DNA of 63,276 nt, counting the filler, from Hausera hauseri (taxonomy: Eukaryota): assembly GCA_046269625.1 (NCBI GenBank). It is 9 parts of 9 records of this genome, joined end to end, with 100 filler letters (N's around TTAATTAATTAA, not from the genome) between each part and the next. Parts side by side here need not be neighbours in the genome. Positions count along the whole stretch, not along the records: positions 37,846 to 52,939 come from JBJURY010466577.1; 8 more parts are not named here. One strand, written 5' to 3'. Below the pieces are notes generated by a model that worked only from the letters and a program-made list of their open reading frames with translations, ran no database searches and was not told the origin of the DNA. A program made the position numbers and the translations under genes. Below, in pieces: positions 23,832-63,276 of this stretch (its first letter is position 1; each line of letters starts with the position of its first letter).

Positions 23832-26800
23832 GTAGCATGTTGCCTTTCGTTGATACCATTTGCTCCAGGATTATATACAGACGTTCGTATGTGCTTTATG
23901 TTCAACTCCTTCAGCGTGTTTCTCATCGACTGATTTACGAACTCTTTACCATTATCTGTGACGATGATTCTGGGGCATCCATATCTGGTTATGAATTTTC
24001 CTGTCAGAATATCGACAATGTTTTCAGCTGTTTTGTCTGGCACTGCATATAGCTCAGGCCAACCACTATAGATGTCCACAATATGTAAAATGTACCTATT
24101 TCCCGACGCTGTTAGTGGATGGGGTCCAGACAAATCTTAGCTTACTTTCTCTATGGGAAAATTGGCGTATTCAGGTTCTTGAATAGGATGTTTTAGTATT
24201 TCCATGTTGCGTAACTTGCAAGGTTCGCATGTTTTGATGTAGTTTCCTATCTCCTGCAACATATTTCGCCAATAATATTTCCTACTGATTAATTCCGCTG
24301 TTCTATCTCTTCCCAAATGACCTATCTTGTCGTGGTGTTCTTGCATTACCCATTGCTTCAAATGTTGTGGTATGCACAGTTGGAAGTTTCTCTTCTCTCC
24401 ACTACCTACACGATACAATTCTTCGCCGTCAAGTATAAACTTATTCCACTTTTTCAACTTCTCCTCCACTCCTGACTGTAAGTCTTCAATGATCTTCTTC
24501 AGCTCCTCGTCTTTCAGTTGTTCTGCCTTCATGTTCACTTTGTTTTCGTCTTCTTCACTAAGTTCTGTTTCCGATTCTCCCGTTTTGTCTACTTTCGTTT
24601 CTGTAGTGCTAACCGCTGAAATTTGAAGAGTATGTTCGTCGATTTCTGGGGTACCGTCGTCAGTGTTCTCTTCACGTGGTTCTTCATGCGTACTTTGCTC
24701 TGGGATTCTTGATAACAGATCTGCAATAGTATTCTGTAATCCCGGAATATACTCAATATTCATATCGTAGCCTTGTAAGTTTAAAATCCACGTTTGTATC
24801 CTTTTATTCTGCACGTCAGCCTTCATCATTGCTTTCAAGGGCATATGATCTGTTCGAATTATAAACTTGCTGTTGTGCAAATAAAAGTTAAGTTTTTGCA
24901 AGGCGTAGTGGATAGCGTACGCTTCTTTTTCCGTTACAGACCACTTCCGCTGCGACTTGGTCAAACGATGAGACAAGAAATATATCGGCTTTTCTTTATC
25001 TACTTTCTTCCCTTGTATTGTTTCTTCGCCGTCCTTTTGCGCCAGTACTGCTCCTACAGCAAAATCGGACGCGTCTGTATACAGTACGTATTCTTTATTT
25101 GTATTCGGGTAGACTAGTAGGGGCACAACTGTCAAGCTTTCCTTCAAGTATTCAAAAGCTGTTTGGCAGTTTTCGTCCCATCGAAAACGAGCAAACTTTC
25201 TGGTTAATGCCACCAGCGGCTCAGCGATTACAGAAAAGTTTGGAATGAACCTTCGATAGTACCCGCAAGTACCCAAGAATCCTCGTACTTCTTTGGTGGA
25301 CTTTGGCGCTGCCATATTCCTAATGGCTACCACTTTGTCATTATCCGGTTTCACTCCCTGTTGAGTGATCACAAAGCCTAAGTATTTGGTCTCCTCTTTT
25401 AGAAATTCGCACTTACTTAACTTCAATTTTACTTTGTGCTCTCTCAGTCGGTCAAATACTTGTTCTACATGTTTTAAATGATCTTTTATATCCCCTTTTG
25501 TAAAGATCAAAATATCGTCGATGTAGGCTAATGCAAATGCCTGCATCCCTTCCAGTACAACGTTCATCAAAGACATGTACGTCGCCGGTGATCCTTTAAG
25601 ACCAAAGGGCATCACATTCCACGCGTAGAGTCCAGTATGTGTGCAAAAGGCACTCTTCGCTTTCGCCTCTGGCGACATGGGAATGGACCAAAAACCCGAT
25701 CTGGCATCTAACGTTGTAAAGTATGTTGTGCCATCCAACAATCCTAGAATGTCGTCTATTAATGGCATTGGATAACTGACATTATTTGTTATGGCGTTTA
25801 ATGCACGGTAATCGACGCAAAACCGATGGCTGCCATCTTTCTTTGAAACAATTACCACAGGAAACGACCACTCGGACCTTGTCCGCTCGATAATCCCTGC
25901 CTTCAACATTTCTTCCACCGCCTTTTCAACTATTTCCCTATTTCCAAGCGGGGTACGATAGGGCTTCAAACTTATAGGAGCGTGATCTCCCGTTTCGATT
26001 TTCATAGTCACCGTTTGCGTTCTTCCTAGTTCCATGTCCGAGATGGCAAAGACATCTGCATGCTTTCTCACGAACTCTTCGACGCACGACTTGTGTTTTT
26101 CTTCTACCTTTAAAGTTTCCAGCAACTTCTTAGTTCTTTCATCGTCTTTCTTGATTTCTGCTATTAACTGTCCTTGCTTTCTCCTCCATAATCCTTCTTT
26201 TATTTCCGCCAACACTCTGTCACGATGTGCTCTTCTTTGCAACTTCTCTTCCCAGTATGTGTCTAGTTTCTCTTGGGCTGACTCTTTCTTGGTTTTTCTA
26301 GTTATGTTCACTGCTTCGCATGTTGATGTGTCAATTTTGTCTAGCTTTGCTACTACACATCCTTTTTGCAGCGTTATAGTCTTCCCAGTATGGTTGACAA
26401 TCATGACTGGTACTTCCCTTTTTTGATCTAACGTCACAATTCCGCATACTGTTTGTAAACCGGGTTCTTCAATAATCTCTTTCTCCTCCAGTGGTGTTAC
26501 AGTCACGTTCTCGCCTTCACGCCAATAACTATTTCTTTTTAGTGACGCCAGTACGATATTCACTGAATTTGGTTTCATCGTTATCTTTCTTCTAACCCGC
26601 ACTATCGATGCTATATGTATATCGTTCTCTAAGTCCACATACTGATCTTCCACTTTTATTTTCTTTAGGTCGAAATAAATTCTCACATTGTGCTTTCGGA
26701 GGAAATCTCTCCCAATGATAGCGCTTCGACACATATTACGAACGATCAGAAAACTATGTTTCATTGTTTTCCCTCCAATGTGAAACTCTAGTGTGGTCTT

Positions 26801-27700
26801 TCCTAAAACTTTCAATGCATTTCCAGAGACCGATCTTAAATCGACATCCTGTTTTATTAGTTTCCTTTGTCCTTCAGCATACGGTATACCCGTTCACTTA
26901 AGATGCTGACCTTCGCACCAGTATCTACTAAACATTGGACTCTCACTTTTCCAAAGTGTATGATGCATGAACTCGGGTCTTCTATTACATTGATTTCATA
27001 TTGTTGTTTCCATTTCCCACTTCTGTCGCATTCTTCTCTGATGCCTTCTGCTTTCAGTTGTTTGGACCGGGGACGTTGTTTTTTCGGAGTTGGGGTGTGG
27101 GTGTTATCGACCTTCTTGTTTTCAGGACTGGGTGGGACTAGCTTTGGGGTTTTTTCTGTATCCTTTCTTTCTGGTCTCATCTACTTCCATTGGCTCCGGT
27201 TCACTGTCCTTCCTATTTCCGGTTCCATCTTGGCCTTTTTTCGCTGATTCACTTCTGGCTTCTGTGTTAGTCTTCTTACACTGTTGGTTCATCTTTAACC
27301 CTTTTCTACCATTTCCGATTTCTTTGTCTTTATCCGTTTCTCTGCTTTTCATCACAGCATATTTTCGGTGATTGTTCCTTTCAACTGGAGTGTAGTTAAA
27401 CTTGTTATTTTTCGAATTCACCATTCTTCTAGTCTGACTGTAACTTCTGTTGCTTCTTCCATAGTTTGTTCTGTAATAATTTCTTTTCATATTTTCTCTT
27501 TCGTTATCCATTCCTGGCTTCTTTCTCTTGTAATTCACCTTGCTCGGTTCTTTTTGCTTCATGTTTCCAATCTTATATCTTTCTTCTTTTCTTAGTATTG
27601 GCCTGCTATTTCGATTTCTAATTTCTCTTGAATTGCTGATGGCTTCCTTTATCTCCCTGCTCTGTCGGAAGCTTAAATCACAGCAGGGTTTCCGTTTCCC
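23832..27700 (-). mobile_element. Ty3/Gypsy pol (PR-RT-RH-IN), lightly disrupted
   Basis: LVDTGAK, RFCVDYRALN, MPFGL, AYIDD, YTDASD, H-H-C-C zinc finger, TDNGKEF; two frameshifts and a premature stop at 24137-24139. Confidence 0.95.
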
Positions 27701-37845: not shown

Positions 37846-40212
37846 AACAGTATAGCCGAAAAACAAACAGAAGACCAACAAACTGGTTATATCATTAACT
37901 ATGTGAAAACAAGAAAATTTCCACCTCATGAAAAATTAACTAAATACCTTAAAAAAGAAGGTCAAAAATTTCTATTAGATGAAAACGTATTGAAATATAA
38001 TAGAGATGGTCAACTTCTAGTAGTCATACCAAAACATTTACGAAATGCCGTACTTTATCAAGAACATGACTCGAATTTAGCAGGTCATCCATCTTCGAGA
38101 AAAACCAAGAAGCGAATAAAACAGAAATACTATTGGCCTACAATTGAACAAGACGTTAAAGATTGGGTAGACGAATGCAAAATGTGTGCAACAATGAAAA
38201 ATAAAGGTAAACGTTACAGACCAGAGTTAAAATCGTTACCAGAACCAAACAGCCCAATGGAATTATGTGCCATGGATTTCTCTGGACCTTTCCCAACGAC
38301 ACCAAGAGGAAATAAATATATATTATTATGCATAGACTATCTAACTAGTTACCCTATACTAATTCCAACAAAGGATTTACTAGCCACCACAGTAGCAAAA
38401 AAATTTATTAATAAAATAGTTTGTCAATTCGGTGCACCACGTTATCTACTAACTGATAGAGCACCAAATTTCCGTAGTGAATTGTTGAAAGAAATCACAG
38501 ACATTTGTCAGACCAGTAGAATGCTAACATCAGCATATCACCCTCAATGTAACGGAAAAGTTGAAAGACTAAACTATACCGTGCAATGTATATTATCAGC
38601 TATGATAGATAAAACACAAAATGATTGGGATATCCATTTAAAAGTCGTACAATTTGCAATAGCAACTACGCCAACCAGCTCATCAGGATATTCACCGTTC
38701 AAATTATTATTTGGCAGAGATCCGCTCATGCCAATAGATATCCAATTATTACCAGAAAAGGCAATACCTGAAAAACAATCAGATGAAGATCTACATGAAA
38801 GTGTAGTAAGTAGTTTAGCAAATTGTTGGAAAAAGGCCAAACAATCTATCAAGCAATATAAACAAGACTATCAAGAATATTACAATAGAAAAGCTAACCC
38901 TCATAAGTTTCAACCAGGAGATAAAGTGATGGTGCATTACCCGGTAGCTAAACCAGGTAAATCACTAAAATTAACACGTACAGGTAAAGGACCTTATCTA
39001 GTAGTAAAAGTTACACCAGAAAATATATTTATAGAAAAGGGCACTGGTAAAAAGACCAGAATTGAATGCATTTCTGCCCAACGGGTCACAAAAGGACCAA
39101 AAGAATCCAAATCGGAAGAAGAACCACGATACTCCTTAAGATCAACTAAACAACCAGTTCTAAAACCAACATCTAGTCTCGAACAATTACTTTTTATAGT
39201 TATAATTTTTGGTATAATATTATCAGCCACAGGACAAGTATTAGAAACAAACCCAATAATGACGGGTCTGGAACAACGAATAGACATAAAATGGAAATAT
39301 GTAAAAGAAAGGTTAAATGTATTATTTTTAGGAGAACCAATTTTTAAAGAAATCACGCAATTGATACTACCTTCCAAAGAAATAGAGTTTTGGATGTTAA
39401 CTAAAAGATGTGTCAGAACCACGAACAGAATATGTTATCTTAATTTGTTCTTCTTAACAACACAAGAACTCTTACAAAAGGGACAAAGATTTATGCCTAT
39501 AGCAAAGCAAGTATATGTCGAAAGATTCCAACAAATCTTTTCCTTTGGTCAAAGAGACCACACACCAAAATTAATAGACAAAGTCATCATGAAAAGGCCT
39601 ACGTTAGTAAATGAAGTTGATCTACAAATAACATATTATTTACCTAAATTCTTCAAACATAAATCAGGTAAGAAGGCTTTAGACTTTCATATCCATATGT
39701 CATTAACACAGTTTTTTGGTTTAATACCTACGACAACGCCAAATTCAGTGGAAGACGAAGAAGAACAAATTACTGACCATAAATTGAATAAAATACCAGA
39801 TATCGATATAACCACGGCAGATGTATATATCGAATTCAAAGTTCTACAACTAGTAAACAATCCAATTTCTATAACTTGCACAGGAAAATTCCATGAAATA
39901 CAGGTTGTAATAAAACAAAAAGAAAAAATGACTAGATGTACTAATCTTCAACCAGATGAAGAATATCTGATCGTCTTCAAACAAGACCAAGCGATAACCC
40001 AATATCAAACAGTTAGAACCCAGACTAAAATTCAAAAATATCTCATACCCGAAGAAAATCTAGTCTATACACAAACACTACCCATAACTACTCCTAAAAT
40101 TTACAACAATGTTAACCCATTAAAAGACTATCATACCATTTACTATTATAATAACTCTCCTATTGCTAATTTCCCTACCATTTACAATAATCGAAATCAG
40201 AAAATGGAATAA
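37846..40212 (+). CDS. pol: Polyprotein C-terminal part: integrase, internal signal peptide, FN3-like accessory domain
   Basis: H..H/C..C zinc finger, MDFSGPFP, LTDRAPNF, AYHPQCNGKVERLN, KGPY; hydrophobic LLFIVIIFGIILSATG (39187-39234); TNLQPDEEYLIVF. Confidence 0.92.
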   Translation, partial: NSIAEKQTEDQQTGYIINYVKTRKFPPHEKLTKYLKKEGQKFLLDENVLKYNRDGQLLVVIPKHLRNAVLYQEHDSNLAGHPSSRKTKKRIKQKYYWPTIEQDVKDWVDECKMCATMKNKGKRYRPELKSLPEPNSPMELCAMDFSGPFPTTPRGNKYILLCIDYLTSYPILIPTKDLLATTVAKKFINKIVCQFGAPRYLLTDRAPNFRSELLKEITDICQTSRMLTSAYHPQCNGKVERLNYTVQCILSAMIDKTQNDWDIHLKVVQFAIATTPTSSSGYSPFKLLFGRDPLMPIDIQLLPEKAIPEKQSDEDLHESVVSSLANCWKKAKQSIKQYKQDYQEYYNRKANPHKFQPGDKVMVHYPVAKPGKSLKLTRTGKGPYLVVKVTPENIFIEKGTGKKTRIECISAQRVTKGPKESKSEEEPRYSLRSTKQPVLKPTSSLEQLLFIVIIFGIILSATGQVLETNPIMTGLEQRIDIKWKYVKERLNVLFLGEPIFKEITQLILPSKEIEFWMLTKRCVRTTNRICYLNLFFLTTQELLQKGQRFMPIAKQVYVERFQQIFSFGQRDHTPKLIDKVIMKRPTLVNEVDLQITYYLPKFFKHKSGKKALDFHIHMSLTQFFGLIPTTTPNSVEDEEEQITDHKLNKIPDIDITTADVYIEFKVLQLVNNPISITCTGKFHEIQVVIKQKEKMTRCTNLQPDEEYLIVFKQDQAITQYQTVRTQTKIQKYLIPEENLVYTQTLPITTPKIYNNVNPLKDYHTIYYYNNSPIANFPTIYNNRNQKME

Positions 40213-40603
40213 AAAACGTAATATAATGAACAGAACCTTATTACTTACAACAAGCCTAATATGTTTAGTTAATATTGATAGGGAGGTGAAATTGGCAGTG
40301 AGCGTTTTTGAGACTAAAAGTTACAAACGAACAATAATAATACCACGTGTGAAAAAATCAACGTTAATGCAATATAATACGCAAAAAGACAAACGAAGTC
40401 CACCAATAATTGATGAACTAATAAAGTTAAACCTCACCAACATAATTAAAGGTCAAAAACAATCAATAATACGGCATATTTTATGCAAGGCAAATCTATC
40501 AACAAATAATCAACCAATCAAATTTAACTACATAAAGTTAAGTAAAATATACATACACGGGCTATATAATAAAACTCGTAATCAAAATCATTTCTTTTTC
40601 AGC

Positions 40604-42637
40604 ATGTCACACTTTAATATTGACCTCGATGCTACCGATGCAGAGTCAGAATCCTCAGTCTCATCAACCGAAACTGTGATCCCTAACCCTAAACGAAGGG
40701 TTATATCATCTCAACAACAATCCAATTCATTCTCTTTTCAAAATCCAACTCAAGGATTATATATGAGTAGAGGTATTCTAGCTAACCCTACCAAAACAAT
40801 AACAAATCAAACTAAACAAAAAATAAAATCTATGGTGGAAATCAGGAAGAAAGCACCAAGTTTCGAGGACTTACCTAAAGAAAAACGGGCTAAACTTCAG
40901 AAACAAATATTAACTAATTTTCAAGAAACAGAAATGGATCGAATAATGAATCGACCTTGGGAAGAATTGTATAAAAAATATATAAATATTTACGATATAC
41001 AAACAAACATATTTCCGTCAAAATTTTATAACCGAATAACAGAATTATCGGAAACATCATTGGATATACTCTTCCCAGAATGTAAATATTTGGAAAACGC
41101 CCTAAAAACTTCTACTACAAACAGTAGAACTTTCCGAATATTGAGAATAGAAAATGCAAGATACAATGTTAACCTTAACGATATTTTATATCCTAACCAA
41201 CTAACAGAAAAGGTCTTAATTCATGTAACCCAAGGAAAAATACAGTTTAGAGCCCATTCGGAAACTTACGAAAGTGTGGATCCTCAAATTTCGACATTAA
41301 CTGGAAAAACCTCCATGAGGATTAAATATCCTGCTCTTCAAACATCAATTTATTTCAAAGTAATATTATTTCCGGTAATACTCGGACTAGAAGTATGTCA
41401 AAAAATGGATGATAACAAAGGATTTAAAGAGCCAAATTTTTACAAAAGACCACCAAAAGATGAAGTCTGTAATTATCGGCTAACAACAGCCAATAATTAT
41501 AGATATCTAGCAGTTTCACTGGCCTATGCCTCAAACGGTGATCCCCTTCCAGTGGAAGTAATTATTGCAGATGAGGAAAAGCTCATTATTTATCAGGCTT
41601 ATCTAAATCCTAGACGAAAAATAGCCAATACAAATGAGCACATCCATGGATTATCACTTTCTATAATTGAAGAAGCAGAGGATGAAGAAACAATTAGAGG
41701 TGAAATAATACAATATTTATATGGATACATAATTATTAGTGCTAACACTAGCACTATCCTCAAGGCTTTACGGATACCCGAAACCTTTCTGTTTGGAATA
41801 ATGGATATATTATCCACACCTAATACAAAAATTAGGTTTGCTGAAGAAAAATTAAAAATTAACCTTACCCAACTGCCAAAAGTGTATGGATTTCAATACG
41901 AGTTCCCAAAAACGGCCGAGACCATAATACAGGTATTAATCGAAATATATAATAAAATATCACAGACTTGTTCAAATGAACATTGGAAATTCGATTGGGA
42001 ACCACCATCAAATAATTTGATTAATGATGGATCCTTCATGGAAATTGCAGAAAAATATCATACAAACTATAAATTTGAAAAAATCCAACCTTCAAGTATT
42101 AATGAAGATCAAATTTCATCATCAATAAATCAATTAAAGAATAACACAATTCAGATAATACGTCAATTAGAAAATAAATGCCCAGCAATAAATGTATCTA
42201 TTATACTATTTGGACAAACCAGTCAAATAATTAATGTCTTTTATATTCAAGAGCCAACAACGACTCTCAATCAAAACAAACAGATAATACCCGATCCAAC
42301 GCATGGCAAGGTGATAGGCATAGTGTATAAACACTCTATGCATTCCACTCTCCATTTAGCTGCCATAGGAGCTAATATGGAGAAAATACAGCAAATCAAA
42401 GATGAACCTATTACTACGGTACAACCTATTCCAATGCAACTTGACCTTATTCCAATCCCTAAACCAAGGGGAGGAAAACACCTTAGCTTAAAAAACACAA
42501 CCAGAGCCAAACTTCGCATGTTGTTATTTGAAAACAGAGGCCAATATCAATTGGAGAATATTTTCAGAATGGAAACCACAATTCAGAAGGAGAATAACGA
42601 CAGAATGAAAACAGTTGACATTGTAATCCAATTATGA
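40604..42637 (+). CDS. Accessory ORF2 (677 aa from ATG 40604; frame open from 40163) with inactive DEDDh exonuclease-like domain
   Basis: Intact ORF. TTTCTTTTTCAG acceptor-like sequence directly before the ATG. REX4-like pattern at ~41498-41950. Confidence 0.75.
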   Translation: MSHFNIDLDATDAESESSVSSTETVIPNPKRRVISSQQQSNSFSFQNPTQGLYMSRGILANPTKTITNQTKQKIKSMVEIRKKAPSFEDLPKEKRAKLQKQILTNFQETEMDRIMNRPWEELYKKYINIYDIQTNIFPSKFYNRITELSETSLDILFPECKYLENALKTSTTNSRTFRILRIENARYNVNLNDILYPNQLTEKVLIHVTQGKIQFRAHSETYESVDPQISTLTGKTSMRIKYPALQTSIYFKVILFPVILGLEVCQKMDDNKGFKEPNFYKRPPKDEVCNYRLTTANNYRYLAVSLAYASNGDPLPVEVIIADEEKLIIYQAYLNPRRKIANTNEHIHGLSLSIIEEAEDEETIRGEIIQYLYGYIIISANTSTILKALRIPETFLFGIMDILSTPNTKIRFAEEKLKINLTQLPKVYGFQYEFPKTAETIIQVLIEIYNKISQTCSNEHWKFDWEPPSNNLINDGSFMEIAEKYHTNYKFEKIQPSSINEDQISSSINQLKNNTIQIIRQLENKCPAINVSIILFGQTSQIINVFYIQEPTTTLNQNKQIIPDPTHGKVIGIVYKHSMHSTLHLAAIGANMEKIQQIKDEPITTVQPIPMQLDLIPIPKPRGGKHLSLKNTTRAKLRMLLFENRGQYQLENIFRMETTIQKENNDRMKTVDIVIQL

Positions 42638-42802
42638 ATCACATTGTGACTTTTACTTTCTGATTTTGAAATCTTCTTGTACTCTTTCATACCTTCTTGT
42701 CGTATTCTTCACCCTCATATTCATTGTATTATTTTTATTGTATTGTAAATAACAACTGATTTCGTTGATTTTTCAAAATTTTACTGATTTAAAATTTTTT
42801 TT

Positions 42803-42817
42803 AAGGGGGGGGGGAGA
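42803..42817 (+). promoter_or_regulatory. Polypurine tract
   Basis: AA(G)10AGA immediately before the TGTT LTR start. Confidence 0.9.
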
Positions 42818-43714
42818 TGTTAGGATTTGACACATAGATCTCATAGAGGTTTCACACAAGGAGGAACATTTTAAATCAATTGATTACTGTTAGGGTTTAG
42901 AACTTAAGATTTAGATTTTAGATTTAGAATTCAGTTTCTAAAATTAGAAATGCGTTGTCACAAAGTACAGAGAACCCTGGAATTCAGAATTCGGTTTTAG
43001 CGTTGTTACAAAGTACAGCCGCGAAATAACCATTTAGCGTAGTTACAAAGTGTAACAGACAAATTATGGTTACTAAAAACAGTAACCCTTTAAGAGCTGT
43101 GTACAACACCCCTCTGCCCCAAATTGAAAATGATACCAAAAAAGGTAACAAATTCACACCTCCACCATCACCCATAAAATAAGTATAAAAGTAAGACCTA
43201 AAATCATAACGACAAGAACAATTTTACTTAAACATATAAAAATCTATAATGTTTAAAGGATTAACGAAATCAGTTATGAAAGATTATTTTTCAAGTTCAG
43301 TTGTATTACCATTCTTTGTTATTTGAATATAACTGAGTCTCTCGGAATATTTATTTTATTTTCAATTGTGGAAAAATCAATTTCGGGATAAAAAGGGAAG
43401 AAAAGTAAATTTCATTTTTACTTTCTTTTTAACAATTATTTTGTTAATTCATTTATTCACCTTCTTCGTTGAATAAATAAATTTTTAATCCCACAAATTA
43501 ATAGCGTTGCAGTCGAAACCATAGTAGACTACGCAATCTTTCACCAATTAAATAAAATTAAACATTAAGAAATTAATTCTACTTTTGTTTTAAATATCCT
43601 TCATCAGATCTATAAATTACACAAGGGTTAAATAAAACCACAATACAAATCACAAACAGAATCCAATTTAACTTTTGAAAAATTCAAGTTGAAATTTTGG
43701 ACACCGAACCAACA
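42818..43714 (+). repeat. LTR (897 bp; single collapsed copy)
   Basis: TGTT...AACA termini between PPT and PBS; TATAAAA at 43184-43190, AATAAA at 43472-43477. Confidence 0.88.
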
Positions 43715-43718
43715 TTTC

Positions 43719-43736
43719 TGGCGACCCTAGCAGGAC
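43719..43736 (+). promoter_or_regulatory. Primer-binding site, tRNA-Arg type
   Basis: TGGCGACCCTAGCAGGAC, 4 nt after the LTR end; resembles the complement of a tRNA-Arg 3' end (TGGCGACC as in 412/mdg1 elements). Confidence 0.82.
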
Positions 43737-43934
43737 TGTTTGTGCTATAGTAACACATATAAAATCATAAACATTTCTAGCCCTAGAAAAGCTAAACTTG
43801 AAGCTAGAAAACGCATTGCTGCCAATTTCGCATCCATAGATAAATCAAAAAATCTACAACCTATTTTAAAAGATTTAACAGTTGAAATTGAACCACTAAA
43901 ATTAGACTTAATCGAAAAAGAAATTGAAAATAAT

Positions 43935-46900
43935 ATGGCTAATTTACAACCTATTAATTTAACTGTGTTCGAACCACTGAATATACCAAAATATAATGGT
44001 GACCCTGCAGGTTTACTAAAATTCCTAAAAACTTATCGACTCTTAAGTGAAGGATTAGGTGTTGAACAACAAGCCTATATCCGTAGAATGCCATTATACC
44101 TTGATGAAGTTGCACTCGATGTTTTTCAAGAATTATCAACTGAAGAAAAAGCTGATTGGGATAAATTAACCTCAGCTTTAATTAAACGCCTAATGCCTAC
44201 AGTTACTCCAACGGCTCAACTAGCTATCTTGCAAAGACGCTTCCAACAAACTGGAGAAACTGTCACCCAATATTCATACGCTTTGTCCGAATTAGCAAAA
44301 AATTATGCTAACACCGTAAAGACTCAAATTTTAATTAAAAAGCCTAATGCAAAAGAGGCAGAATTAGAAGTAGAAACCGATATCCACTTGTTAACGCAGT
44401 TTTTAAAAGGTGTTAGAAAGGATATCAAAACAGATATCTTGAAAAGAAACTGTTTAACTTTTAAAGATGCTGTAAGAGAAGCACAAAATCTCGAAGCTTA
44501 TGTAGGCCCCTATAAAGATGAAAGACCACCAAAATCTAATCAAAGATTTAACAATAATAATCCAAATAATCAACAAAATCAGCAGCAAAACCAACAACAA
44601 AATCAACAGCAAAGTATTAACAATCAGCAACAAAAACAAAGTAAACCTCAACAAAATCAAAATAATTATGGAAACTCAAACAATTCATATCAAAAAGATA
44701 ATAATTTTGGTAAAAAACCATTCAATAAAAATAATTCATCAAACCAATATCAACAGAAAGGTCGAGTTGATATCAACAAAAATGGTACCCCCATAGTTTG
44801 CAAAAGATGTGAACTAACAGGACACAATTCCATAAATTGCATGACACCAGTAGATCAACTCCCAAGAGTGAAACAAGAAAAAAGTGTAAATCTTTCGTCG
44901 CTTCATGAAACGTTAGAAGACGTAAAATTAAAATTAGATAAATTACCACCAACGGTAAAGGAACAGTTTATAAACCAAGCTGCTAATGAAAGCAGAGAAG
45001 TGGATACAATGTTGAAAAGATACAACGCTGGAAAGTACAAATCACAAGTATCATCTATGTTAGAAGAAGATGATTATACTGACGAATTCATTACAGATAG
45101 TATAATTTTATCTACTAGAAAACGAGCAGTAGACAAGGTAATGCAAGGAATACCATTAACACCAGCCGAAGAACTATTACTTAATGCAATGCCAATAGGC
45201 CCTGAATCAAGATATGATAGTCATGGCATTAATGAACCTAATATTTACAAAGATAATGAGACTAGTTCACTTTTCCCACCTTTTCATATTAATGAAAATA
45301 TTGAAGAAAAAGAGGAAAATAACGATGAAACAATAGCTGTCATAGATCTAGACAAATATTCTGATAAAGAATCTGAAAAATCGCTCCATATTGACGAAGG
45401 TTCCGATAAATCCATCCAGATAACAGAAGAAGTAGAAACTATACTTAAACAAATGGACGAAATAGATATAACAGATCTTAACAAACCAATCTTGAATAAA
45501 CCAAGTTCTCAAAATATAATTAAATCAGACAGTGAAGAATTTTTATCAACAGTTCATAAAAAGAAAGGCAAAAAGATGGATAAAGCAGAACCATCAACTA
45601 CTGAAATAAGTAGAGAAGAAAAATTTATAGCGCAAAATATTAAACAGGATATTAAAAATATCCTAGCTGGAGAAATACCTTCCTATGCTAAGGATCTGCC
45701 TGAGATGCAATTAGTAATAGTATCAAAGCAATTAAACGATCCAAAAGCCCTAAAACAATCAGAAATCTTTAAAGATCTATTACAGGTACTAAAGCAAGTA
45801 CATAACAATAGATATAAACAACAATGTTTAAATATAGAAAACATCATTGATGAAGTTTTAGGAAGACCTAAAGATATAGAAAGTCATACTCGCAGCAATC
45901 CAGTTGAGATCATAGATTTGACTGAATATTCTCCAGAGATCGAATTTAATATAAGACAAATTTTAGCTAAAGCTAAAAATTTTAATATGGAAGAAATTCC
46001 AGATATCGAACAACTACAAAATCTCTTAGAAAAATTAGAAAACTACCTTCAACAAAAAAGAAAAATACCTTTCTTAGAGCGTCAAGATATACAAAGTGCA
46101 ATGAGAGATTTACAACAAAAGATTGTAGATTTCGAACTTAAAAAACAATCTATAGTAGAAATATATTTTGACATAGATAAAATAATTCAATCAAAGTTAT
46201 CTAGGCAAGAAAAAATGAGATGGCTAGAACGAAAAAATCTAGTTGCACAGACAATGGAGTTTCCGTTTAAAAAAGAAAATGAGCAAAAAAGGTCTGAGAT
46301 TCGACAAGAAATTATTAAGTTTACTAAACCAAGTAGACAGAAAGTAAATGAATTAAAAACCAGAATTGAAAACCTTAGTAGAATGAATTTACCAAAGTTA
46401 TCCCAAGAAAAGTTAAATAAACAAATGTTAAAGTTGAACAAATTCAAAACCACCTTTACTGAAAATGATCGAGCTAAAATCGATGCCATTGAATATTTTC
46501 TAGATAAAATAGATGACACTCCCAAATTAATGGCACAAATTGAGGAATTAAAAAATAAATTAAGAAGCAAGACCTTTAAACCTCTTGACGAAATAAAAGC
46601 AAGTAAACATCTAAAAACCGTAAATAACTTAAAACCTTTCTTCACAGAGTTGGATAAGAAAAAGATTAAGAAAATAGAAGAATGGTATAAAGATGCTACT
46701 ACAGATCAATATGCATCTCAAGAAAACCTTGTCGATATAGACGACATTGATCCAGCAGAATTAGATGATATAGAAGAAATAAACAATGATGATGATCTCG
46801 AATTAACAGAAAGGGACATTGAAGAAACCCTACAACAATACGAGGAAACATGTAACGAACCGTTATCTAACCAAATAGTACTAGACGAATATTCAGTGAA

Positions 46901-49900
46901 TAAGTTAAAATCTGATATAACCATGACTCAGGTTTGGCCAGAGATCCTAGATGAACACGCATCAAATTGTCTAGAATTAAAACTAGATTTAAAAACAATA
47001 AAAGATAAAATACCTGAGCTCATCACATTAGCAGCGGATAATAATCGCTATAATGCACTCCCAAGGATATTATTAAAAAAATATGGAGAACAGTTTCGGC
47101 ATTTAACACCAATGGTTTTACCTATTAGAGTTCTTACGCTCAAAGCAAAAGACTCAAAAATTATCATGAATACTCATGACACTGTGTTAACAGCAAAGCA
47201 AGTCATAGCACAACAATTGAAAATGAATATCAATTATATGAGAATAATTTTTAATAATCGAATATTAGACAATGCAACACACCTCACGGAAGTAGGTATC
47301 CTCCCAGATGGAAACAATGAAATCCACGTAGTTGAAACAAATCAACTATTAAAAGAAGATGTAATAAGAAGAATATCTGATGGCCAAGACATTAAAATAG
47401 ATGAAGAAATTCTGGGAGTAACAGACAAAAAACTGTTTGTAGCTAAACTTAAAAATAATTTAATTAACCAACAAGAAATTTCATTATGTGACTACGATCA
47501 AGAAATTCACCAAAATATTCCACAACAGCTAATGCAAGCTAAATCAAAAAGAGGTAAAACTAGACAAACTAATGATGAAGTAATCGTCGACTCATTTGTA
47601 CAAAAATTCACTAATGCTGAAGTAATTAAAACAAATAAAAGTTATAAAATCATCCGGGATTTGTTAAAAGAGTTATACGATATCATTAATGGTGTTATCA
47701 CTATTAACAAAGATACACCAAATTGGATAAAAAGTGTTAAAGAATTAGCACTACAATATCAAAAAGAAACAGCACCAAAACAACTTCGCGAACAAATTGC
47801 TCGAAAATTACTGCAACCTATATCAAAAAGGCGTATCGAAAAAACCATGATATACCTGACTACGACAATAACAAACAAATCTGAATTAAAAGAAATAATC
47901 CCAATCATTATAGATCTAATCGAGCCAGATGTTACTCGATTTGGTGGATGGCCAACAATATTTGACAGAGAAATCTTGCAAAAACAACCATTAATTCAGC
48001 AAACTGAAAATAACATTGAAAAATTACCAGAACTAGTAAAACAAATGACGGATGCAATAAAAGAACAGCAAACCGAAGATGAAAAGATGGGCATAACGTC
48101 AACTAAAACAATGATGAATGCATTCTTAGCTATTCTATTAATGCTAACCACTATCCTACCAAAAGGAGCAGGTATAACAATATATGATTGTAATAACAAC
48201 ATAAAACACGGAAAAAAATATTCCTTAATGGATTTAGATAAATGCCCAGACGCATCACCACACAGGATAGTAACACTGCAAGAATATATTTATGTATATC
48301 AACAAAAACAAAAAATACATACGGAAGGGTACGAATGTTCGCTGCAATTATCAGAAAAATGGCAACATTGCGGTATGCACAGTCATATGTCAGAAATAAG
48401 TCCATTCACACCCTTTAAGCAACTGAAATTAACACCACAACAATGCCAAGAAGCAATAAATTACGGACGATACGTTTGGGATGGATCAACAATAGATATC
48501 CAAGTTGGGGAAATTCGAACATATTTGAAATACAAAGAAGGTACCATAGATGCAGCAGGAAATTGTGCATCAAGTGATGGAGGAAAAGGAAAAATACATA
48601 TCCAGAGATTTATAGCTGAATTAAAAGTGGCAAAATTCATCTTTGATACTACTACTAACACCATGGTGGATGCACCATTTTGTAAGTACACAGCAGAATC
48701 ATGTCGAGTCAGAACTGGATTATTATATTGGACAGTTAATAAAAACCAAAATGATTGCCAATTGGCTCTAATTAAAAAAGGAATGTTTAATGTTACAACT
48801 GGATATCGCTATAATGATGAAATGAATAAAAATTTGCCCGATGCATCGGTAAGACGAATACCAGAAAATCCCACATCCAGGGTATATTGGTCTAGTAACG
48901 TGACAGAAGGAATGAAATTCATCAGGCAAGAGGCAGTAGTAATATGTGGAACAACACTATGGAGAACAAATTATCCAAATTTCTTCATTTCTCAAACTTC
49001 TGTAAATCAAGCAGACGGAACCTTTGCAGATAAAACTCAACATTTAGATCTCCAATCATATATAAGAAATCGTGACGATTACTTATATTTCATTACTACA
49101 AAAAGTATACATGAAATGTATTCAGAAGTAATTGAAAATGATTGCAGATTAAATCAAGAAATATTACGAACAAAACTATCATTAATAACATCAAATCCGG
49201 ACATGATAGCACCAGCGTTACCATTAATGGAAGGGATGTTTGGAAGAGTCATCGGAGAAACTCTGATAACTTTTAAATGCGAAAAAATAGAAGCAAACTT
49301 AGCGGTAGATAGAAAAATAGTAAGCACTTGTACCGCCGAAATACCTATAACAATTAATGGTGAAACAAGATATGCAACACCAATAACACGAATCCTATTA
49401 CCAAAACAAACTAAGCCAACAATTATCCAAAATTGTACAGGTTTAGTAAAACCAATAATAAAATTTAATAATCAAGATCAATGGGTACAATTGCCAGAAG
49501 GTACTATTGTAACCACACCAAGTAAAATAACAATGACAGCATTAAAATACGCCGTCGATATAAATTTATTTCAGGACACGTCACAAGTTGGATTATATGG
49601 ACCAACAGAAGTGAACGCTTTCATCAAACAAATAATGTTCCCTATAATGAGAGAACAGGAATTTAATCGAGTTGGACATGCCGTTCTAATGAGTGAATCA
49701 TCTAATCGAGACTACAGTCAAGGATGGCAAACAGTATTGAATCCCAACTTACATGAAGAAGCAGCTAAACGAGTTTTTAAAAAGTTATTTGGAAGTTTTC
49801 AGTGGTTTGGAAATATAGCTGCAGGAGTTTTGGCCATTTACTATATACTAATGTGGATAAAAATGGGACTCATGTCATGCATAGATGCTTATGGTATATA

Positions 49901-52900
49901 TACCATAACAGGATGCACATGGAAAATTGCAACAGCAATTATTAGACCAATAGGAAGAATCCTTATGGTACATCAAGAGCATAGATGGAAACAGGGAATA
50001 GAAAAACATGTAAATTACATTCCACCTCACAAAAAATATCATAAAAAACCTCCAAAACCGCCTAAACGAACGTCGGGATCAGTTAAAGGAAGTTTGAACG
50101 ATTTACGACAACGATTTAAAAAATATGCGTCAAGTAACCAAGAGGAAGAATACGATAAAATCCAATGTAACGTTGATAAAAAGTGGCTTGATTACCAACC
50201 ACCATATCAGCCAATATTAAAACCATTGCCAGATTACCCAACAGCACCTCCAAATTATAAATCAGACACAATGTTGTATAGTCCCAGAAGGCCAACGTCA
50301 CCAATAACTAATATGCCACTTGTAAATCCTGAATTGGCTCAAATGTTACAAAACAAACAAAGTCAATCCACTTCGCCCAAAAACTTCGAAGAAGTATCCA
50401 TCCATGATACTTACGAACAACGAGAAAGATATGCTAAATTATCAGTAATAAAACCAGATAAACAAAATTTATATCCAACAAATCAATTAAAAAATTATCA
50501 AGAAAATACGGATGAACTTGGCCCGACAAATGTTGTAGTTTTTGGAACAAATAATTTTACCATTTCGATGCTAAGTGAAATAGAATCCACAGAAGGAGCT
50601 TTAGATCCTCATTTAAATCAGACCACACGAAGAAAAGTCGATAAAAGACCAAGAACACTAATCAAAGTTGGCGGCTCGATATTTAAAGCATTAGTAGATA
50701 CAGGTGCCTCGATATCAGTGATAAAGGAATCACTAATTCCAGAAGAAAAGAAATGTGAATTGGTTGTTCCAGATATATTACCATCCGGAACAAGTGTATT
50801 TGGAGATTCACAGACTCCAGTAGCTTATTGGGAAACCGATGTGCATATTTATGGAGAAATATTACCTGCCAAATTTAGAATAATGAAAGGACTTGTCGAT
50901 GAAGTAGTAGTTGGAATGGATATATTATCCTTGTTAAAAGATATGGTATTAGACTTGTCAACAGGACAATGTAAACCATACAAGAAAGATACCCTACCTG
51001 ATGGATATCAACAAAATACAGTTTGGATGGACACAGATGAAGATATTCCACCAATTACCGAAGTAGTACTATTTGCAAATGTAGCAATTAATGATGAAAG
51101 TAAAGATTTCTTTTTTCAACCAAAACAATTACATAATGAAGATCTAATAGTAATACCATCAGTAAGTAAAATCATTGGTAACAGAATACCAGTTAGAATT
51201 ATAAATGTCGGAGTAGGACAAACTTGGTTAAGACGAAATCAACGAATTGGAGAAGTAATCGCTTCTGTAACCGAAATAAAAGAAGAACCACCTAAACCAA
51301 AGGAGTATATTCTCTTACCAAAAATAAAAGATACCGACTTAAATTTAGAAGAATATGCTGAATTTAGTCTCACGCTATTAAAATACGAAGATGTATTTGC
51401 CAAGAATGAAGATGATTTAGGAAAATTGAAAAATTTTCAAGTTGCAATAAAGTTAAAAAAGGACCCAGAAACGGGATACGAATTGGACTTAGCAAATCAA
51501 CCTCAACCAAAATATTATCTCCCACCAGAAGCAGTTCGACAAGATCTAGATGATGAAATCAAAAGGTTAATAAGACTAAAAATAATAGAAAAAACTAATG
51601 CCCCATGGGTATCACCAACCCTAATGGTTCCAAAAAAGAACACAACGAAAAAACGTTTGTGTATTGATTTTCGGCATATAAACAATTTTATAATAAGTGA
51701 CACCTTTCCACTACCAAAAATAAAAGAAATAATCGAAAAATTGAAGAATAGTGAATTCTATATAACAATTGATTTTCAATGTGGATTTTGGCATGTTAAA
51801 ATTGACAAAGAAGACAGATACAAAACCGCATTCAGAGTACCACGAGGAATTTACCAATTTAAAAGAATGCCTTTTGGACTAAAAATAGCTCCATCAGTAT
51901 TTCAGAGACTAATGACTCAAATTCTAATAGAGGAAAACAATCCTGGCGCAGAAATAACGAGCAATAATAATGAAGGAGACATGGTATACATCGATGACCT
52001 TGTCTTAACTGGTACAAGTTTTAATCAGTTAATGGAAAAGTTAGAGGATAAGTTACAACGATGTAGAAAAACAGGTTTAAAAATCAACCCTATGAAGTGT
52101 AAATGGTTTAAACGTGAAATAACTTATCTTGGATTCAGAATATCAAAACAAGGAATAACTACAATGGATGATATAATTCAAAAAATTATTGAATATCCTA
52201 TACCATTAAATAAAAAACAATTACAAAGATGGTTAGGATTAGTTGGATTCTATGCAGACTTCGTGGAAAACTATGCACAAATAAACTCACCATTATACCG
52301 ACTATTAAGAGCAAAAGTCAAATGGGAATGGACAGAAGAATGCCAAAATGCTTTAGACGAAATGAAAAAGCGGTTAATCTCAGCACCAATAATTCAATAT
52401 CCAGATTACGAACTACCATTCATTATCAAAACCGACGCAAGTGGAAAAGGTTTAGGTTACATATTGGCCCAACAAACACCACATGAAACCACAGAACATG
52501 TCATAGTCTACGGAAGTAGATCACTGAAACCCGCTGAAACTCGCTATGCAGCAACAGAACTCGAATTATTAGCAGTAAAAGAAGCTCTAAAACACTATTA
52601 TTACTACATCTATGGACAAAAAATTATTTTGTACACCGATCATATAGCGTTATTAAACAAAAAATTTGATCAAGAACTAACTAAAAGGATGAATAAATGG
52701 TTAGCATATATCAAAGATTTCGATATAGAATTCAGATACAGACCTGGTAAAAACAATACGGATGTAGATGCATTATCTAGAATGTATGAAAATATTTCAT
52801 CCTTGGACGAGAAAGAGCATTTATTTAACAAACTCTTAAAACAATATCGAGAAATAAATACGAACAGTATAGCCGAAAAACAAACAGAAGACCAACAAAC

Positions 52901-52939
52901 TGGTTATATCATTAACTATGTGAAAACAAGAAAATTTCC
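43935..52939 (+). CDS. Giant Gag-UBL-Env-PR-RT-RNaseH polyprotein (continues through the circular junction to 40212; ~3,764 aa)
   Basis: Capsid motif IPKYNGDP; CCHC at 44799-44840; UBL at 47112-47333; signal peptide at 48111-48173; glycoprotein with YDC/CGMHSH; TM ~49800-49970; DTG at 50697; YIDD at 51987; IKTDASG. Confidence 0.95.
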
Positions 52940-53172
52940 NNNNNNNNNNNNNNNNNNNNNNNNNNNNNNNNNNNNNNNNNNNNTTAATTAATTAANNNNN
53001 NNNNNNNNNNNNNNNNNNNNNNNNNNNNNNNNNNNNNNNCGTTTTAGACAGAGTCATTTATTTAATCAGTTTTTTATTGGATGTTGTTATTTGGTAAAGC
53101 CTTGTCCAAGCCAGTTTTTTATATTCTTTTTATCAGTAGGGTTCTTTAGGAGCAACATATAAAGTTATTAAA

Positions 53173-55043: not shown

Positions 55044-56829
55044 GTGCCCTTCATAGTCTTATCGATTCTTCTAACTCTAAAAGTCTGAGTGTACTTTATT
55101 TTTGTCGTACTTCTGGAATTTGCACGTTTTGTATAGTTATTACTCCAATTTTAAAGGGGTCTTGACATTCTGCTTGTTATATATTGATTGAATCAAAAGG
55201 TGTCGTTTGTTCTATTATAGCAGAATTCCCCGATTAATAAGTGCAGTAAAACAAAAAGAACGATTTCTTTACGTAATATTGATGGTATATATATGGAATG
55301 TTTAGTATCCTGGTATCAATCGATGGAAGAAGCAGTATATCAACAAACTAGCATTGGGTTTTGTAGTTTTGTTTTGATTTTTGAATCACTTATAGAAGAA
55401 GTACCGTAAAGCAGAAGTTACAAAAGTGGAATCATGTATGCAAGAAGTGCCGTAAATTTCTATATAACAATAAAATATAGTTTACATATGTATTAATTCA
55501 ACATGAGACGTTAAATCTTTTGTTGGACGTGTTGTCTATTTTATGGTTTCATATAGGGAAACCACTTAAGCAATAAGTACCATAAATGCCTATGTAACAA
55601 TATTACTTACATATATCAATTCAACATGAGACGTTATGCATATTTAATTATGAGTTATAAAATGGTATTTAAAAAATGAAGGAAGAAACATGAAGTTGTG
55701 TTTATACAAAATGTACATTATGCAGCAGCAGCTTTTCCAATATTCCTGTACTATGTTAATACTCCAATTGGTTTACCCATGTTTTGAAAATCGGTGTATT
55801 GGTTGCTCCTGCATTTCATCCATACTTTTTGTACACTTCAATCAAATTGAAAATAATATATTTGGATATCTTTGTTTCATAACATTGTTTCCATTGAATT
55901 TCACAAAGGTTAGAATTGACAGTTTCAAGATCACTGTGACTAGGCACGTTGATGACATGTTCCATAATGTTGGAAAGTAATAGTTTGAAGTTTGCGTTTT
56001 TTGGATACAGACACAATTTATATCTCTTATGTTTACTACTTTATATGTGCGTGTTAAAACAATACATTAACACATGAAAAAGACGATAAGACACTAAAAC
56101 ATACGAATTTATTCATAAAATAGAAAAACTTTCAATGAACAGACTCTACGTCCAATCCGTTTGTCCAGCTTAATAGCATTTGTCAATGTCACCAGTATCT
56201 AATGTTATCACTATTTCACCATCTTCTTCTTCTTCTTCTTAATAAGTGTATAATATTTTCATTCCATTGAAAATTTGTTTCCCTAGAATAATTTTGTACC
56301 TTGCATGTTATACCAATCTGCTAAAATATGTTCTCATATTAATTTGGATTCCATGATCGGCCATCGTCCATCTTTTCAATATTAAAGGGACTCCGAATGA
56401 TATTCTTCCATCTATCACTGGCAAATTGAACCTACCCTCATTTTGACTTCTCGTTATATCTTCAATCATTTTCAAATTATGACAAAATTTGTTTAATATT
56501 CATACGTTTTATCATTTATTTTATTGGCTGCAATTTTCTGAAAATTAGTATAAATAAAGTGACCATTTACATTTATTTTGGAATCAAATTTAATTTCAAT
56601 TGGAATTTAACTTTAAATCAAATTTAACTTAAAACGAATAGAAATTTATAGTACTTCTTGCATGAGTAGTTCCCCAATATTAACCAAAATGGTTATAAGC
56701 AAATCATTTTTAATATTACAAAACGCCATACAAGAAGAGTTTATTAACACATAAGTTTGAGTATTTTTTGTTTCATGCTGGGGGATGACTTATTCAAGAA
56801 GTACCATAAATTTCTATTCCATGTTAATT

Positions 56830-57270
56830 TAAATTTGTATTATTTATAAATTTGATTTTAAGTTAAAATTGATATTTTGTAAAATTTGATTTACTTATAA
56901 ATTTGATTGTAAGTTAAAGTTGATTTCAATTTATATTTGGTTTAAGTTAAATTTGATTTTAGGTTATATTTGATTTACTTCTTAGTTCAATTTTTTGTTA
57001 AATTTTATTTTAGGTCAAACTCGATTTTAAGCTAAATTCCATTTGAAGATAAATATGATTATAATATTTATTTCATTTTAAATTAAATTCTATTTTAAGT
57101 CAAATTCGATTTTAAGTTATATTAGACTTTAATCTAAATTTGAATTTAGTTAAATTTGATTTGAAGATAAATATGGTCATAATTTATATTTGATTTCACG
57201 AAAAATTTGATTTTAAATTAAATTTGAGTTTTAGTAAAATTTGATTCTAAGTAAAATTCGATTTTAGTGA
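56830..57270 (+). repeat. Degenerate AT-rich tandem array (~17-nt unit AAATTTGATTTTAAGTT)
   Basis: Many imperfect copies of aaattYgattttaagtt. Confidence 0.75.
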
Positions 57271-57289
57271 AAACGGATATAGTACAAGA

Positions 57290-57390
57290 GTTATGTAGGA
57301 ACGAATTTACACGAAAATCCATCAGCTACAAACCATTTCCTCTAAAAAGAAGGCACTGGACCCGTTTGATGATAAACAGCATTGAGCTCA
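57290..57390 (+). pseudogene. Possible Polinton-type DNA polymerase B C-terminal scrap
   Basis: HQLQTISSKKKALDPFDDKQ resembles the K.ALS.FDDKR C-terminal motif; very short. Confidence 0.4.
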
Positions 57391-60885: not shown

Positions 60886-63276
60886 CTATGCTAAGTTTAG
60901 CATCGTTTGCATGACATTTAACAATTTAGCGATATTCTCTGCTTTTACTTCTCCTTCATCCACGCTTTTAGCTTTGCTTGTTTTACTTTTACTCTGTACT
61001 TCCGCTTCTATTATTACTTTAGGTTTACTTATGTCCCGTTTCATCATTGTACTTTGATTTCCTATTTCGTCTGGGTTTTCTTTCCCGTTAACTACTTCGG
61101 CTAACTGTTTTCTTAACTTCGTTATTGTTTCTATCTTCTCTGTATTTTCTTCTGCTAGTCTAGCGGAATGGTTTTCCACTTCTCGTATCATCTCTTCCTT
61201 TTCTTGTACTTTGCCTTGGAGTTCATTAACTTCCATCTCTACTTTTCGTTTGGCTTTTGTTAATTTTTCCACCATGTCTCGCATGCCGTTCATTTCTTTA
61301 TCTTCCTCAGCCACTGTCATTGCTCTTGGCCTACTTTCGCCATGTGCTCCGGTTTCAGCGACCTTCTTTTCTTTTAATTTCTCTGTTTGATTTACCCGGT
61401 TTTTCTCTTTTAACTGCCTTCTTAGCTCATTTATTATCCCGATTTGTTTCATATTTTCTGCTTTCAAACTCATCGTCTGTAGCTCTTTTCCCTTTCTTTT
61501 CGTTTTTGATTGCATGGCTTCACTTATTGGAATTCTTGACCTTTTCTCACCAACTTCTGCTATACTTGCTTCTACTTGATTTCTTTCTTTTTCTTGTTTC
61601 TTTCTAACTTCTTCTGCTCTCTTCTTATACATTCTTCGTAATGCCGCTTCCCTCTTGATTTTCGCTAGTGGTTCATCTTCTGTGGATGTACCTGAATCTC
61701 TGAGTCGTTTTAGTCTCTTGACCATTTGGTCTAACTCCGACGTTTCCGTTTCCGTATCTTCTACTAATGTGTCTGAACTACTATCATCCGGTTCCGTGTC
61801 GTCTTTCTGTTCACCTTGCGTTTCTTCATCATCTCCTTCGTCTTCCTGTGCTTCTCTTTTTTCTCGATCTTCTAGACGTCTTTTCCTTTCTAGTATAGGC
61901 ATGTCGCTATCTTCTGACGAGCTGGTTCGTATAGTTCTTCGTCTCTTTAACTGTTGTGCCCTTGCTTCTTCAAATTTCTTTCTCGCTGCTGCTCTGGTGT
62001 TTTGATATGGGGCGGTCATCTCAGTTTCTTTTTCTGTTCTCACTTCCGTTTCGTTTTTCGTTCCAGTTTCTGTTCTCGGTTTTATTGGGTATGGGATTGC
62101 TATTTCATATCTGGTGTCACTTTCTTCTTCGCTTGACGTTTCGCTACTACTTGAACTTTCTTTATCAGATGGATCTGAACTGCTTGATGTCTTTGGTGGT
62201 ACCACATATCTCGCTTTTCGTTTTCCGTCTTTCATCTCAGCTTTGGGCTCTTCTAACATTTTCCTGTTGTCTTTTCTCAGTTGACTGGTAGTTGTTGTCA
62301 CTTCATGTTTTGTAAGTTGGTTCGTTATAAAATATGATATTGGTCCTCTTTTTTCAATTATTTTGTACCCTGGTAACCAGTTATTCTCCATTTTTGAACT
62401 TTTCCTGTGCTTCCTGTAATATACCCTGTCTCCTACTTCGAATTCTTGCTCTACTGACTTAGGATCTGCGTATTTCTTTCGTTTTTGGAATGCTTTTCTT
62501 ACATTTCTACTAACTTTAGTCGTGATCTCATGTAACTTTTGTAGTAGATACTGATGAAATTCTTCGCCTTGATATCTTAACCTTGGTTTCAACAAGTTGT
62601 CGACTGGTAATCTCGGTTCTCTGCCGAACATCATTTCATATGGTGAATATTTCCTACTACCATTCTCCATCACACGTATTACCATCGCTGCTTGACTTAG
62701 ATAGAGATCCCACTCTTTTGGTTGGTCGTTCGTATGTTTCGCTATTATGTCATACAATGTAGAGTGTTGTCTCTCATTAATGCCGTTAGCTCTCGGGTTG
62801 TAGCAAGATGTCGTTACATGTTTGATGTTTAACTCTTTTAATGTTTCTTTCATTGCCTTATTTACAAACTCTCTTTCATTATATGTGGCTATTATTTGGT
62901 GACATCCATATCTCGGAATAAAACTTCCTAATAATATTTCTATTATATTCTCTGCCGATTTATCTGGCACTGCGTATAATTCCGGCCATCCGCTATATAC
63001 GTCCACAATGTGTAAGATATGTTACTTCCTGAGGCTGTAATTGGATGGGGTCCCGAAAGATCTAAACTTATCTTTTCGATTTGAAAGTTCGCATATTCGG
63101 GTTCTTGTATTGGATGTTTCAGTATTTCCATATTTCTCAATTTACACACTTCACAATTTTTGACATAATTTCCTATTTCTTGAGTCATGTTCTTCCAATA
63201 ATACTTTCTGCTAATCAGTTTGCTAGTTCTGTCTCTACCAAGGTGTCCTAACTTGTCGTGATGTTGTTGCATTACA
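60886..63276 (-). CDS. pol: Gypsy integrase with ~450-aa acidic/coiled-coil C-terminal extension (frameshift ~63020)
   Basis: GHLGRDRT..YYW..C..C, DLSGPHP, YNPRANGINER, SPYEMMFGREP; closely similar to the integrase at 23832-24350. Confidence 0.92.

Follow-up and report, generated by a model that had tools for sequence, protein, structure and literature searches.

Motifs on the tail of an envelope (Env) protein encoded at this locus address the question of how chuviruses and the env-bearing retrotransposons of invertebrates exit the cell. The window, as the whole stretch of DNA analysed here is called (63,276 nucleotides of Hausera hauseri, GCA_046269625.1), consists of AT-rich contigs with N-linkers between them, and one of these contigs (37846-52939, JBJURY010466577.1) carries a Gag-Env-Pol element. 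An earlier note, made from the sequence alone, had drawn attention to late-domain motifs between the Env and protease regions of this element. In our reading, to which we give a probability of about 0.65, PTAP and LYPx3L in the Env tail are under selection and likely recruit the ESCRT machinery, via TSG101 and ALIX, to release enveloped particles. That the element releases such particles is something we infer from its sequence. If the reading is true, canonical late domains on the tail of a fusion protein represent an unusual division of labour. Further, they provide a short, testable handle on whether elements of this kind make real enveloped particles.

The element is a Ty3/gypsy LTR retrotransposon with the GAG-ENV-POL layout of the gB-type errantiviruses, an element type that is already known. 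The order of its Pol domains (protease, reverse transcriptase (RT), RNase H and integrase, with H2C2 and GPY/F) is that of Ty3/gypsy elements (Metaviridae), and an Env of gB fold lies between gag and pol, as in GAG-ENV-POL errantiviruses of the HSV/gB type (Table 1). The RT is 35-40% identical to those of seven Env-bearing relatives, versus 29% to that of the window's other element. The contig is circularly permuted, with integrase at its start and the rest of Pol at its far end. Its first and last 77 bases are identical, the pattern to be expected of a collapsed multi-copy element, and this collapse accounts for the absence of a second LTR. Evidence for the LTR in this collapsed assembly comprises one TG...CA stretch, a polypurine tract and a site resembling a primer-binding site (PBS).

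Table 1. Features of the Gag-Env-Pol element, in positions of the window.
Feature	Position	Strand	Basis or remark
Integrase H2C2 and core, at contig start	38026..38541	+	PF17921, PF00665; GPY motif at 38989
Polypurine tract, putative	42803..42817	+	Purine run immediately before the TG of the LTR
LTR, putative, TG...CA, single copy in collapsed contig	42818..43714	+	Ends read from sequence
Primer-binding-site-like sequence starting TGG	43719..43736	+	Read from sequence
Gag-Env-Pol ORF, no stops	43935..52939	+	3,001 codons, from ATG at 43935 to scaffold gap at 52940
Gag: Retrotrans_gag (weak) and CCHC zinc knuckle (44799-44840)	44091..44840	+	PF03732 E 9e-4, below cut-off
Ubiquitin-like domain between Gag and Env (residues 1064-1133)	47124..47333	+	PF00240 E 1.6e-5, just under cut-off; PDB ubiquitin/DSK2 matches
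Env internal signal sequence, predicted	48117..48176	+	Kyte-Doolittle peak 1.84; start of PF24664 match
Env ectodomain, chuvirus-type class III fusion protein, gB fold	48177..49802	+	PF24664 (Monjiviricetes_fusion) E 2.9e-65
Single membrane span, predicted	49803..49859	+	Sole charge-free hydrophobic run in 138-row alignment
Amphipathic juxtamembrane helices, predicted cytosolic face	49860..49970	+	Periodic polar columns; helices in model
Hydrophilic Env tail / pre-protease spacer, 225 aa	49971..50645	+	Basic start, 8 K/R in first 30 aa
LPDY-PTAP-PPNY block: TSG101-type PTAP overlapping NEDD4-type PPxY	50226..50258	+	In-frame match; island conserved among copies
LYPTNQL, ALIX-type LYPx3L	50469..50489	+	Aligns with LYPLKQL, LYPTIQL, LYPVDQI, IYPLQQL of relatives
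Aspartic protease, DTG within 50691-50711	50640..50930	+	PF00077 E 2.4e-7
Reverse transcriptase (YIDD) and RNase H	51627..52721	+	PF00078, PF17919, PF17917

The element and its surroundings have other features of note. Its one protease is followed by a stretch with no assigned domain (~51000-51600); in seven relatives (P0002, P0003, P0004, P0006, P0007, P0010 and P0011), there are apparently at least two tandem protease-like domains after Env. The integrase frame runs ~400 residues beyond GPY (39187-40212, plus strand), with a hydrophobic, signal-like segment at 39187, and this extension is possibly a second membrane protein. Relative P0002 has a similarly long integrase extension with a C-terminal membrane segment. 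Between integrase and LTR lies an extra ORF of 803 amino acids (40226-42637, plus strand) with no Pfam match; by Atlas features, its residues 380-620 score 0.88 for likeness to RNase T/DEDD exonucleases, which is no more than a lead. Copy depth over this ORF is far below that over the main frame, and thus most copies lack it or differ there. The ubiquitin-like domain keeps the residues that match ubiquitin Leu8, Arg42 and Ile44 in a PDB alignment, and has no terminal di-glycine; weak ubiquitin-like stretches (E 0.06-0.5) lie upstream of Env in 4 of 14 relatives. Ubiquitin, when fused, can substitute for late domains, and by analogy this domain could be a further ESCRT-recruiting signal.

Elsewhere, the window holds a decayed second env of the same family (54992-54187, minus strand; 26-28% identity), with a frame change, stops and no tail motifs left. 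It also holds, at 24137-26893 and 60886-63021 (both minus strand), a second LTR-retrotransposon pol with a weak dUTPase match and a separate integrase ORF, and an AT-rich array of ~17-nt units, inverted copies included (56570-57300). Among the relatives, the Gag-Env-Pol polyprotein P0005, also a member of this family, bears a label that assigns it to a Flavobacteriaceae MAG; it is probably a eukaryotic contaminant in a bacterial bin.

On which side of the membrane would the motifs lie? The PF24664 match spans ORF residues 1394-2041, and a model of the Env ectodomain (pLDDT 86) has HSV-1 gB (5v2s) as its best Foldseek match, at E 4.6e-11. There are two clear hydropathy peaks, at residues 1396-1414 and 1965-1983, and none from the spacer to the protease. 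In the 138-row alignment, only the region ~1957-1972 is free of charge; K/R follows at 1973 (53%) and 1976 (74%). Past the span, hydrophobic residues alternate with polar columns, and the hydrophobic moment of residues 1994-2011 is 0.59. We read the membrane region as one span followed by amphipathic helices, which is the layout of the gB tail; the second hydrophobic stretch might instead form a hairpin. Because the spacer is continuous with Pol, both belong on one side of the membrane, and Pol needs the cytosol. The spacer is thus predicted to be a cytosolic Env tail behind a single predicted span. A lumenal location, which by the earlier note's own account would be fatal to a role in budding, was rejected as the likelier topology in view of the single charge-free span, the positive residues after it and the continuity with Pol.

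The motifs themselves can be read directly. PTAPPNY (50238-50258), in which PTAP (50238-50249) overlaps PPNY (50247-50258), and LYPTNQL (50469-50489) are present just where they had been reported, in frame with the ORF that starts at 43935. They match the late-domain consensus sequences (PT/SAP, PPxY and YPxnL, as defined in the passages of PMC8402826 cited here). PTAP, PPNY and LYPTNQL are each the sole match of their kind in the 3,001-residue frame, and each is unique also in the 19,233 residues of window ORFs of at least 100 aa. An LPxY word (LPDY, 50226-50237), absent from the earlier note, immediately precedes PTAP. The nearby QPPY, which had been listed alongside these motifs, was rejected as a PPxY, as YQPPY (50193-50207) does not fit that pattern. 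In 100,000 shuffles of the 225-aa spacer, a post hoc comparison, the chance probability was 0.008 for P[TS]AP, 0.0065 for LYPx3L and 0.13 for PPxY; it was 2e-5 for all three types together and 2e-5 for an overlapping P[TS]APPxY. Shuffles of the proline-rich 100-aa segment first remarked upon, likewise post hoc, gave 8e-5 for all three types. Taken singly, PPxY is within chance in the spacer (P 0.13-0.18 in shuffles).

Copies of the element speak to selection on part of the tail. Genomic copies were examined as contigs of three runs, X1, X2 and X3; X2 and X3 mirror X1 closely and are perhaps not independent of it, and X1 is possibly the window's own source. Contig depth in X1 is in the thousands over most of the main frame, versus ~15-25 for unique pieces, and dips over the spacer. 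At 80% likeness, the summed depth in X1 (summed contig depths are not equal to copy numbers) is 4,900-35,000 over 50190-50264 versus ~60-310 in adjacent bins, with a lesser peak of 860-3,200 at 50280-50339; X2 and X3 give the same shape. By contig depth, the PTAPPNY block is an island of conservation among diverged copies. Among the 40 best-supported of 142 differences, all six changes within 50226-50261, a block delimited afterwards, are silent, versus 14 of 34 outside it (Fisher p 0.02). None of these best 40 of 142 falls on the codon for Asn or for Tyr in PPNY. Residue P2093, just upstream of the block but inside the island, does change. LYPTNQL coincides with no depth island (depth ~80), and thus the copies are uninformative on this motif. 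To judge from these sequences, PPxY is conserved only among the copies of the window's element, and partly at that.

A wider comparison was made with the tails of homologous proteins. An exhaustive search found 824 homologs at E 0.001, the best 150 of which were taken together with P0002, for a total of 151. The membrane region is reached in 137; nine proteins with tails shorter than 25 aa were dropped, and the 128 tails kept comprise 115 stand-alone tails (no downstream protease) and 13 from Env-protease polyproteins. Among the matches listed for the stand-alone tails, P[TS]AP is present in 23 of 115 (shuffle mean 1.2, maximum 5; the 300 shuffles take no account of relatedness), YPxL in 32 (1.4 shuffled), YPx[LI] in 45 (2.4), LYPx3L in 3 (0.09) and [LIVM]YP in 59 (4.1). 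Any strict motif is found in 48 of 115 (5.7 shuffled) and none in the other 67, and PPxY is at chance level, in 5 versus 3.2, which is not significant (matches listed). Among the matches listed for the 13 Env-protease spacers, [LIVM]YP occurs in 9 (0.8 shuffled), YPxL in 5 (0.4) and LYPx3L in 2 (0.03); P[TS]AP (1 of 13, a count reached in 65 of 1,000 shuffles) and PPxY (1 of 13) are not significant. No PxxP words are commoner in the tails than PSAP and PTAP, and YPx-hydrophobic occurs 63 times, versus 7 for the next Y word (matches listed). In the ectodomain controls, again among the matches listed, P[TS]AP is found in 1 of 128, YPxL in 6 of 128 versus 10 shuffled, and PPxY in 13 of 128 versus 4.7. 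Over-represented as it is in a lumenal control, PPxY must be regarded as unspecific.

LYPTNQL aligns with LYPLKQL of P0002 (27% overall identity), and the three further words in Table 1 come from other relatives; across most homologs, motif positions are not alignable. Carriers of P[TS]AP are dispersed over the tree, with 24 changes, gain or loss alike, for 25 carriers, as for shuffled labels. Twenty motif carriers were picked for look-up; five of these are named, all of them chuvirus or chu-like glycoproteins (Guangdong red-banded snake, Wenling fish, OKIAV150, soybean thrips 2 and Wuchang cockroach virus 3). Conservation beyond chance, a mark of late domains, was found for PT/SAP and YPxnL. 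The absence of the motifs from relatives, named earlier as grounds for abandoning the budding reading, is therefore not what we observed, as both recur in relatives' tails. As a conserved feature, the proposed cluster of all three late-domain types stands for PT/SAP and YPxnL, which are family-enriched, and fails for PPxY, which is at chance level in both sets of tails.

These results bear on where the motifs came from. The 1,387 residues before Env in the window's ORF contain no late-domain motif. Likewise, in 7,946 residues from the Gag sides of 11 polyproteins, of which the window's is one, there is no P[TS]AP, PPxY or LYPx3L, and YPx[LI] is at chance level (2 of 11 versus 1.5). Given a Gag with no late domain, the Env tail would supply the release function. 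The suggestion that budding signals had been relocated to the glycoprotein is too strong: the same motifs are also borne on glycoprotein tails of RNA viruses without a Gag, which makes them look like a property of the Env family. We rejected a transfer out of Gag, since the Gag sides have the motifs at no more than chance level and RNA-virus glycoproteins carry them. The motifs are likely a trait of the chuvirus-type glycoprotein family itself. With two of the three signal types enriched in related tails, this family likely brings its own exit signal together with cell entry.

Alternative explanations of the motifs must be weighed. The one that survives best, which we nonetheless consider unlikely, is that they recruit ESCRT and NEDD4 to sort Env into multivesicular bodies, extracellular vesicles or lysosomes, rather than for virion scission. 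A membrane-anchored tail with 24 lysines and a PPxY suits ubiquitin-dependent sorting, and the loading of host membrane proteins into vesicles uses the same motifs (PMC9511404, in the part cited here). This explanation sits less well with the lack of PT/SAP and PPxY in Gag (11 of 11) and with the many copies that keep the block. Sorting of Env and release of particles are not mutually exclusive, and they are indistinguishable by sequence. YPxL is also compatible with YxxPhi, a general sorting pattern. The same pattern with no Pro, Y[not P]x[LI], shows no enrichment (12 of 115 stand-alone tails versus 16.5 shuffled, matches listed), and YPTN is not a YxxPhi word; plain AP-2 sorting is thus unlikely, and we rejected plain YxxPhi sorting on the former count.

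It is less probable still that LYPTNQL is mainly a cleavage site (LY/P) at which the element's protease separates the Env tail from Pol, which would leave PTAP as the only ESCRT signal. Tyr-Pro and Phe-Pro bonds are cut by retroviral proteases, and YP is present in the spacers of 11 of 13 relatives, in 10 of them at 12-39 residues from the spacer end (matches listed). Yet FP is not enriched, being found in 11 of 115 stand-alone tails versus 10.7 shuffled and in 2 of 13 Env-protease spacers (matches listed), and Leu or Ile is preferred at +3 or +5. Moreover, [LIVM]YPx[LI] also occurs in the RNA-virus glycoproteins P0070, P0109 and P0065, and such viruses have no such protease. Finally, a disordered linker rich in proline might yield such motifs by chance, a caveat of the earlier note. 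This explanation accords with PPxY taken alone, for which it survives, and with the unalignable positions, but is very improbable and largely refuted for PT/SAP and YPxnL by the joint probability in the spacer, the silent-only change among copies in the PTAP block and a 20-fold, tail-specific enrichment of these two types with clean decoy controls (matches listed).

We therefore return to ESCRT-driven release, for which we propose the following course. The polyprotein would be threaded through the membrane at the internal signal and one span, leaving Gag, tail and Pol in the cytosol, and each Env trimer would gather three tails where assembly takes place. There, PTAP would bind the UEV domain of TSG101 and LYPx3L the V domain of ALIX, and, in the lineage of the window's element, the overlapping PPNY would bind a WW domain of the NEDD4 family; these pairings of motif and partner (TSG101, ALIX, NEDD4 ligase) follow the passages of PMC8402826 cited here. 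ESCRT-III would cut the neck, and Pol would then be detached from the tail by the protease. The Env tail would thereby take on the role played in other systems by p6, p12 or a matrix protein. Since the tail tethers Pol to Env, release and protease activation could be coupled through this single linker; a race between these two events has been described for HIV (PMC4900648, in the part cited here).

A broader proposal, to which we give slightly less than even odds, is that chuvirus-type class III fusogens are entry-and-exit proteins, with TSG101 and ALIX late domains on their cytosolic tails. G would then drive chuvirus budding, and Gag-Env-Pol retrotransposons would have gained both infectivity and ESCRT-driven release via one gene. 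The chuvirus genomes given in two preprints are listed with L, G and N plus one further ORF, small or unknown, and neither preprint names a matrix protein.

GAG-ENV-POL errantiviruses with an ENV of the HSV/gB type are described by Chary and Hayashi (2026, PMC13524379), whose main text reports this layout from Nematoda, Bryozoa and Platyhelminthes and cites the nematode ERVs of Sacco et al. (2022). Our element resembles these in its Ty3/gypsy Pol, its gB-fold Env between gag and pol, its LTR with a PBS-like site and its many copies; unlike the elements as described in that main text, it has a single frame, a ubiquitin-like domain and late-domain motifs on the Env tail. The main text, supplements being outside our scope, makes no mention of ESCRT, late domain, PTAP, cytoplasmic, ubiquitin, budding, fused or frameshift. 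Chuviridae glycoprotein G (PF24664) and the env of the BEL/Pao element Anakin (Dezordi 2020, PMC7642597) belong to the same family as the window's Env, at ~20% identity, and share its membrane region and tail motifs. In chuviruses, G is a protein of its own and its tail has ~70 residues, whereas the tail here has 225 aa and continues into Pol. There is no mention of late domain, budding or cytoplasmic in PMC7642597, and PMC6394706 assigns its motifs to ORF I and ORF III rather than to G. Within the open literature (subscription papers, supplements and Sacco 2022 lay outside its scope), our search turned up no description of either PT/SAP or YPxL in the Env tails of chuvirus-type proteins or errantiviruses. 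What appears new here, relative to that literature, is the presence of late-domain motifs on the Env tail and, mainly, their family-wide enrichment.

Well-known late domains include the overlapping PTAP/PPxY of Ebola VP40, PTAP with LYPxnL in HIV-1 p6 and the three types in MLV Gag (PMC8402826, in the passages cited here). The window's tail has the same motif classes, a VP40-like overlap and a p6-like position just upstream of the protease. The motifs of those proteins lie in soluble Gag or matrix, whereas those of the window lie on the tail of a fusogen, with no sequence homology and a predicted role. Nearer in concept are the tails of hartmanivirus GP2 and hantavirus Gn, proposed as matrix surrogates (PMC6261641, in the part cited here), and bluetongue NS3, a membrane protein with access to ESCRT (PMC4452911, likewise). 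The motif in hartmanivirus GP2 is, in that account, a speculated ALG-2 site rather than PT/SAP or YPxL, and bluetongue NS3 is non-structural and not a fusogen, as the window's Env is. The idea shared with all three is that, where a matrix protein is absent, the cytosolic part of a membrane protein gives access to ESCRT.
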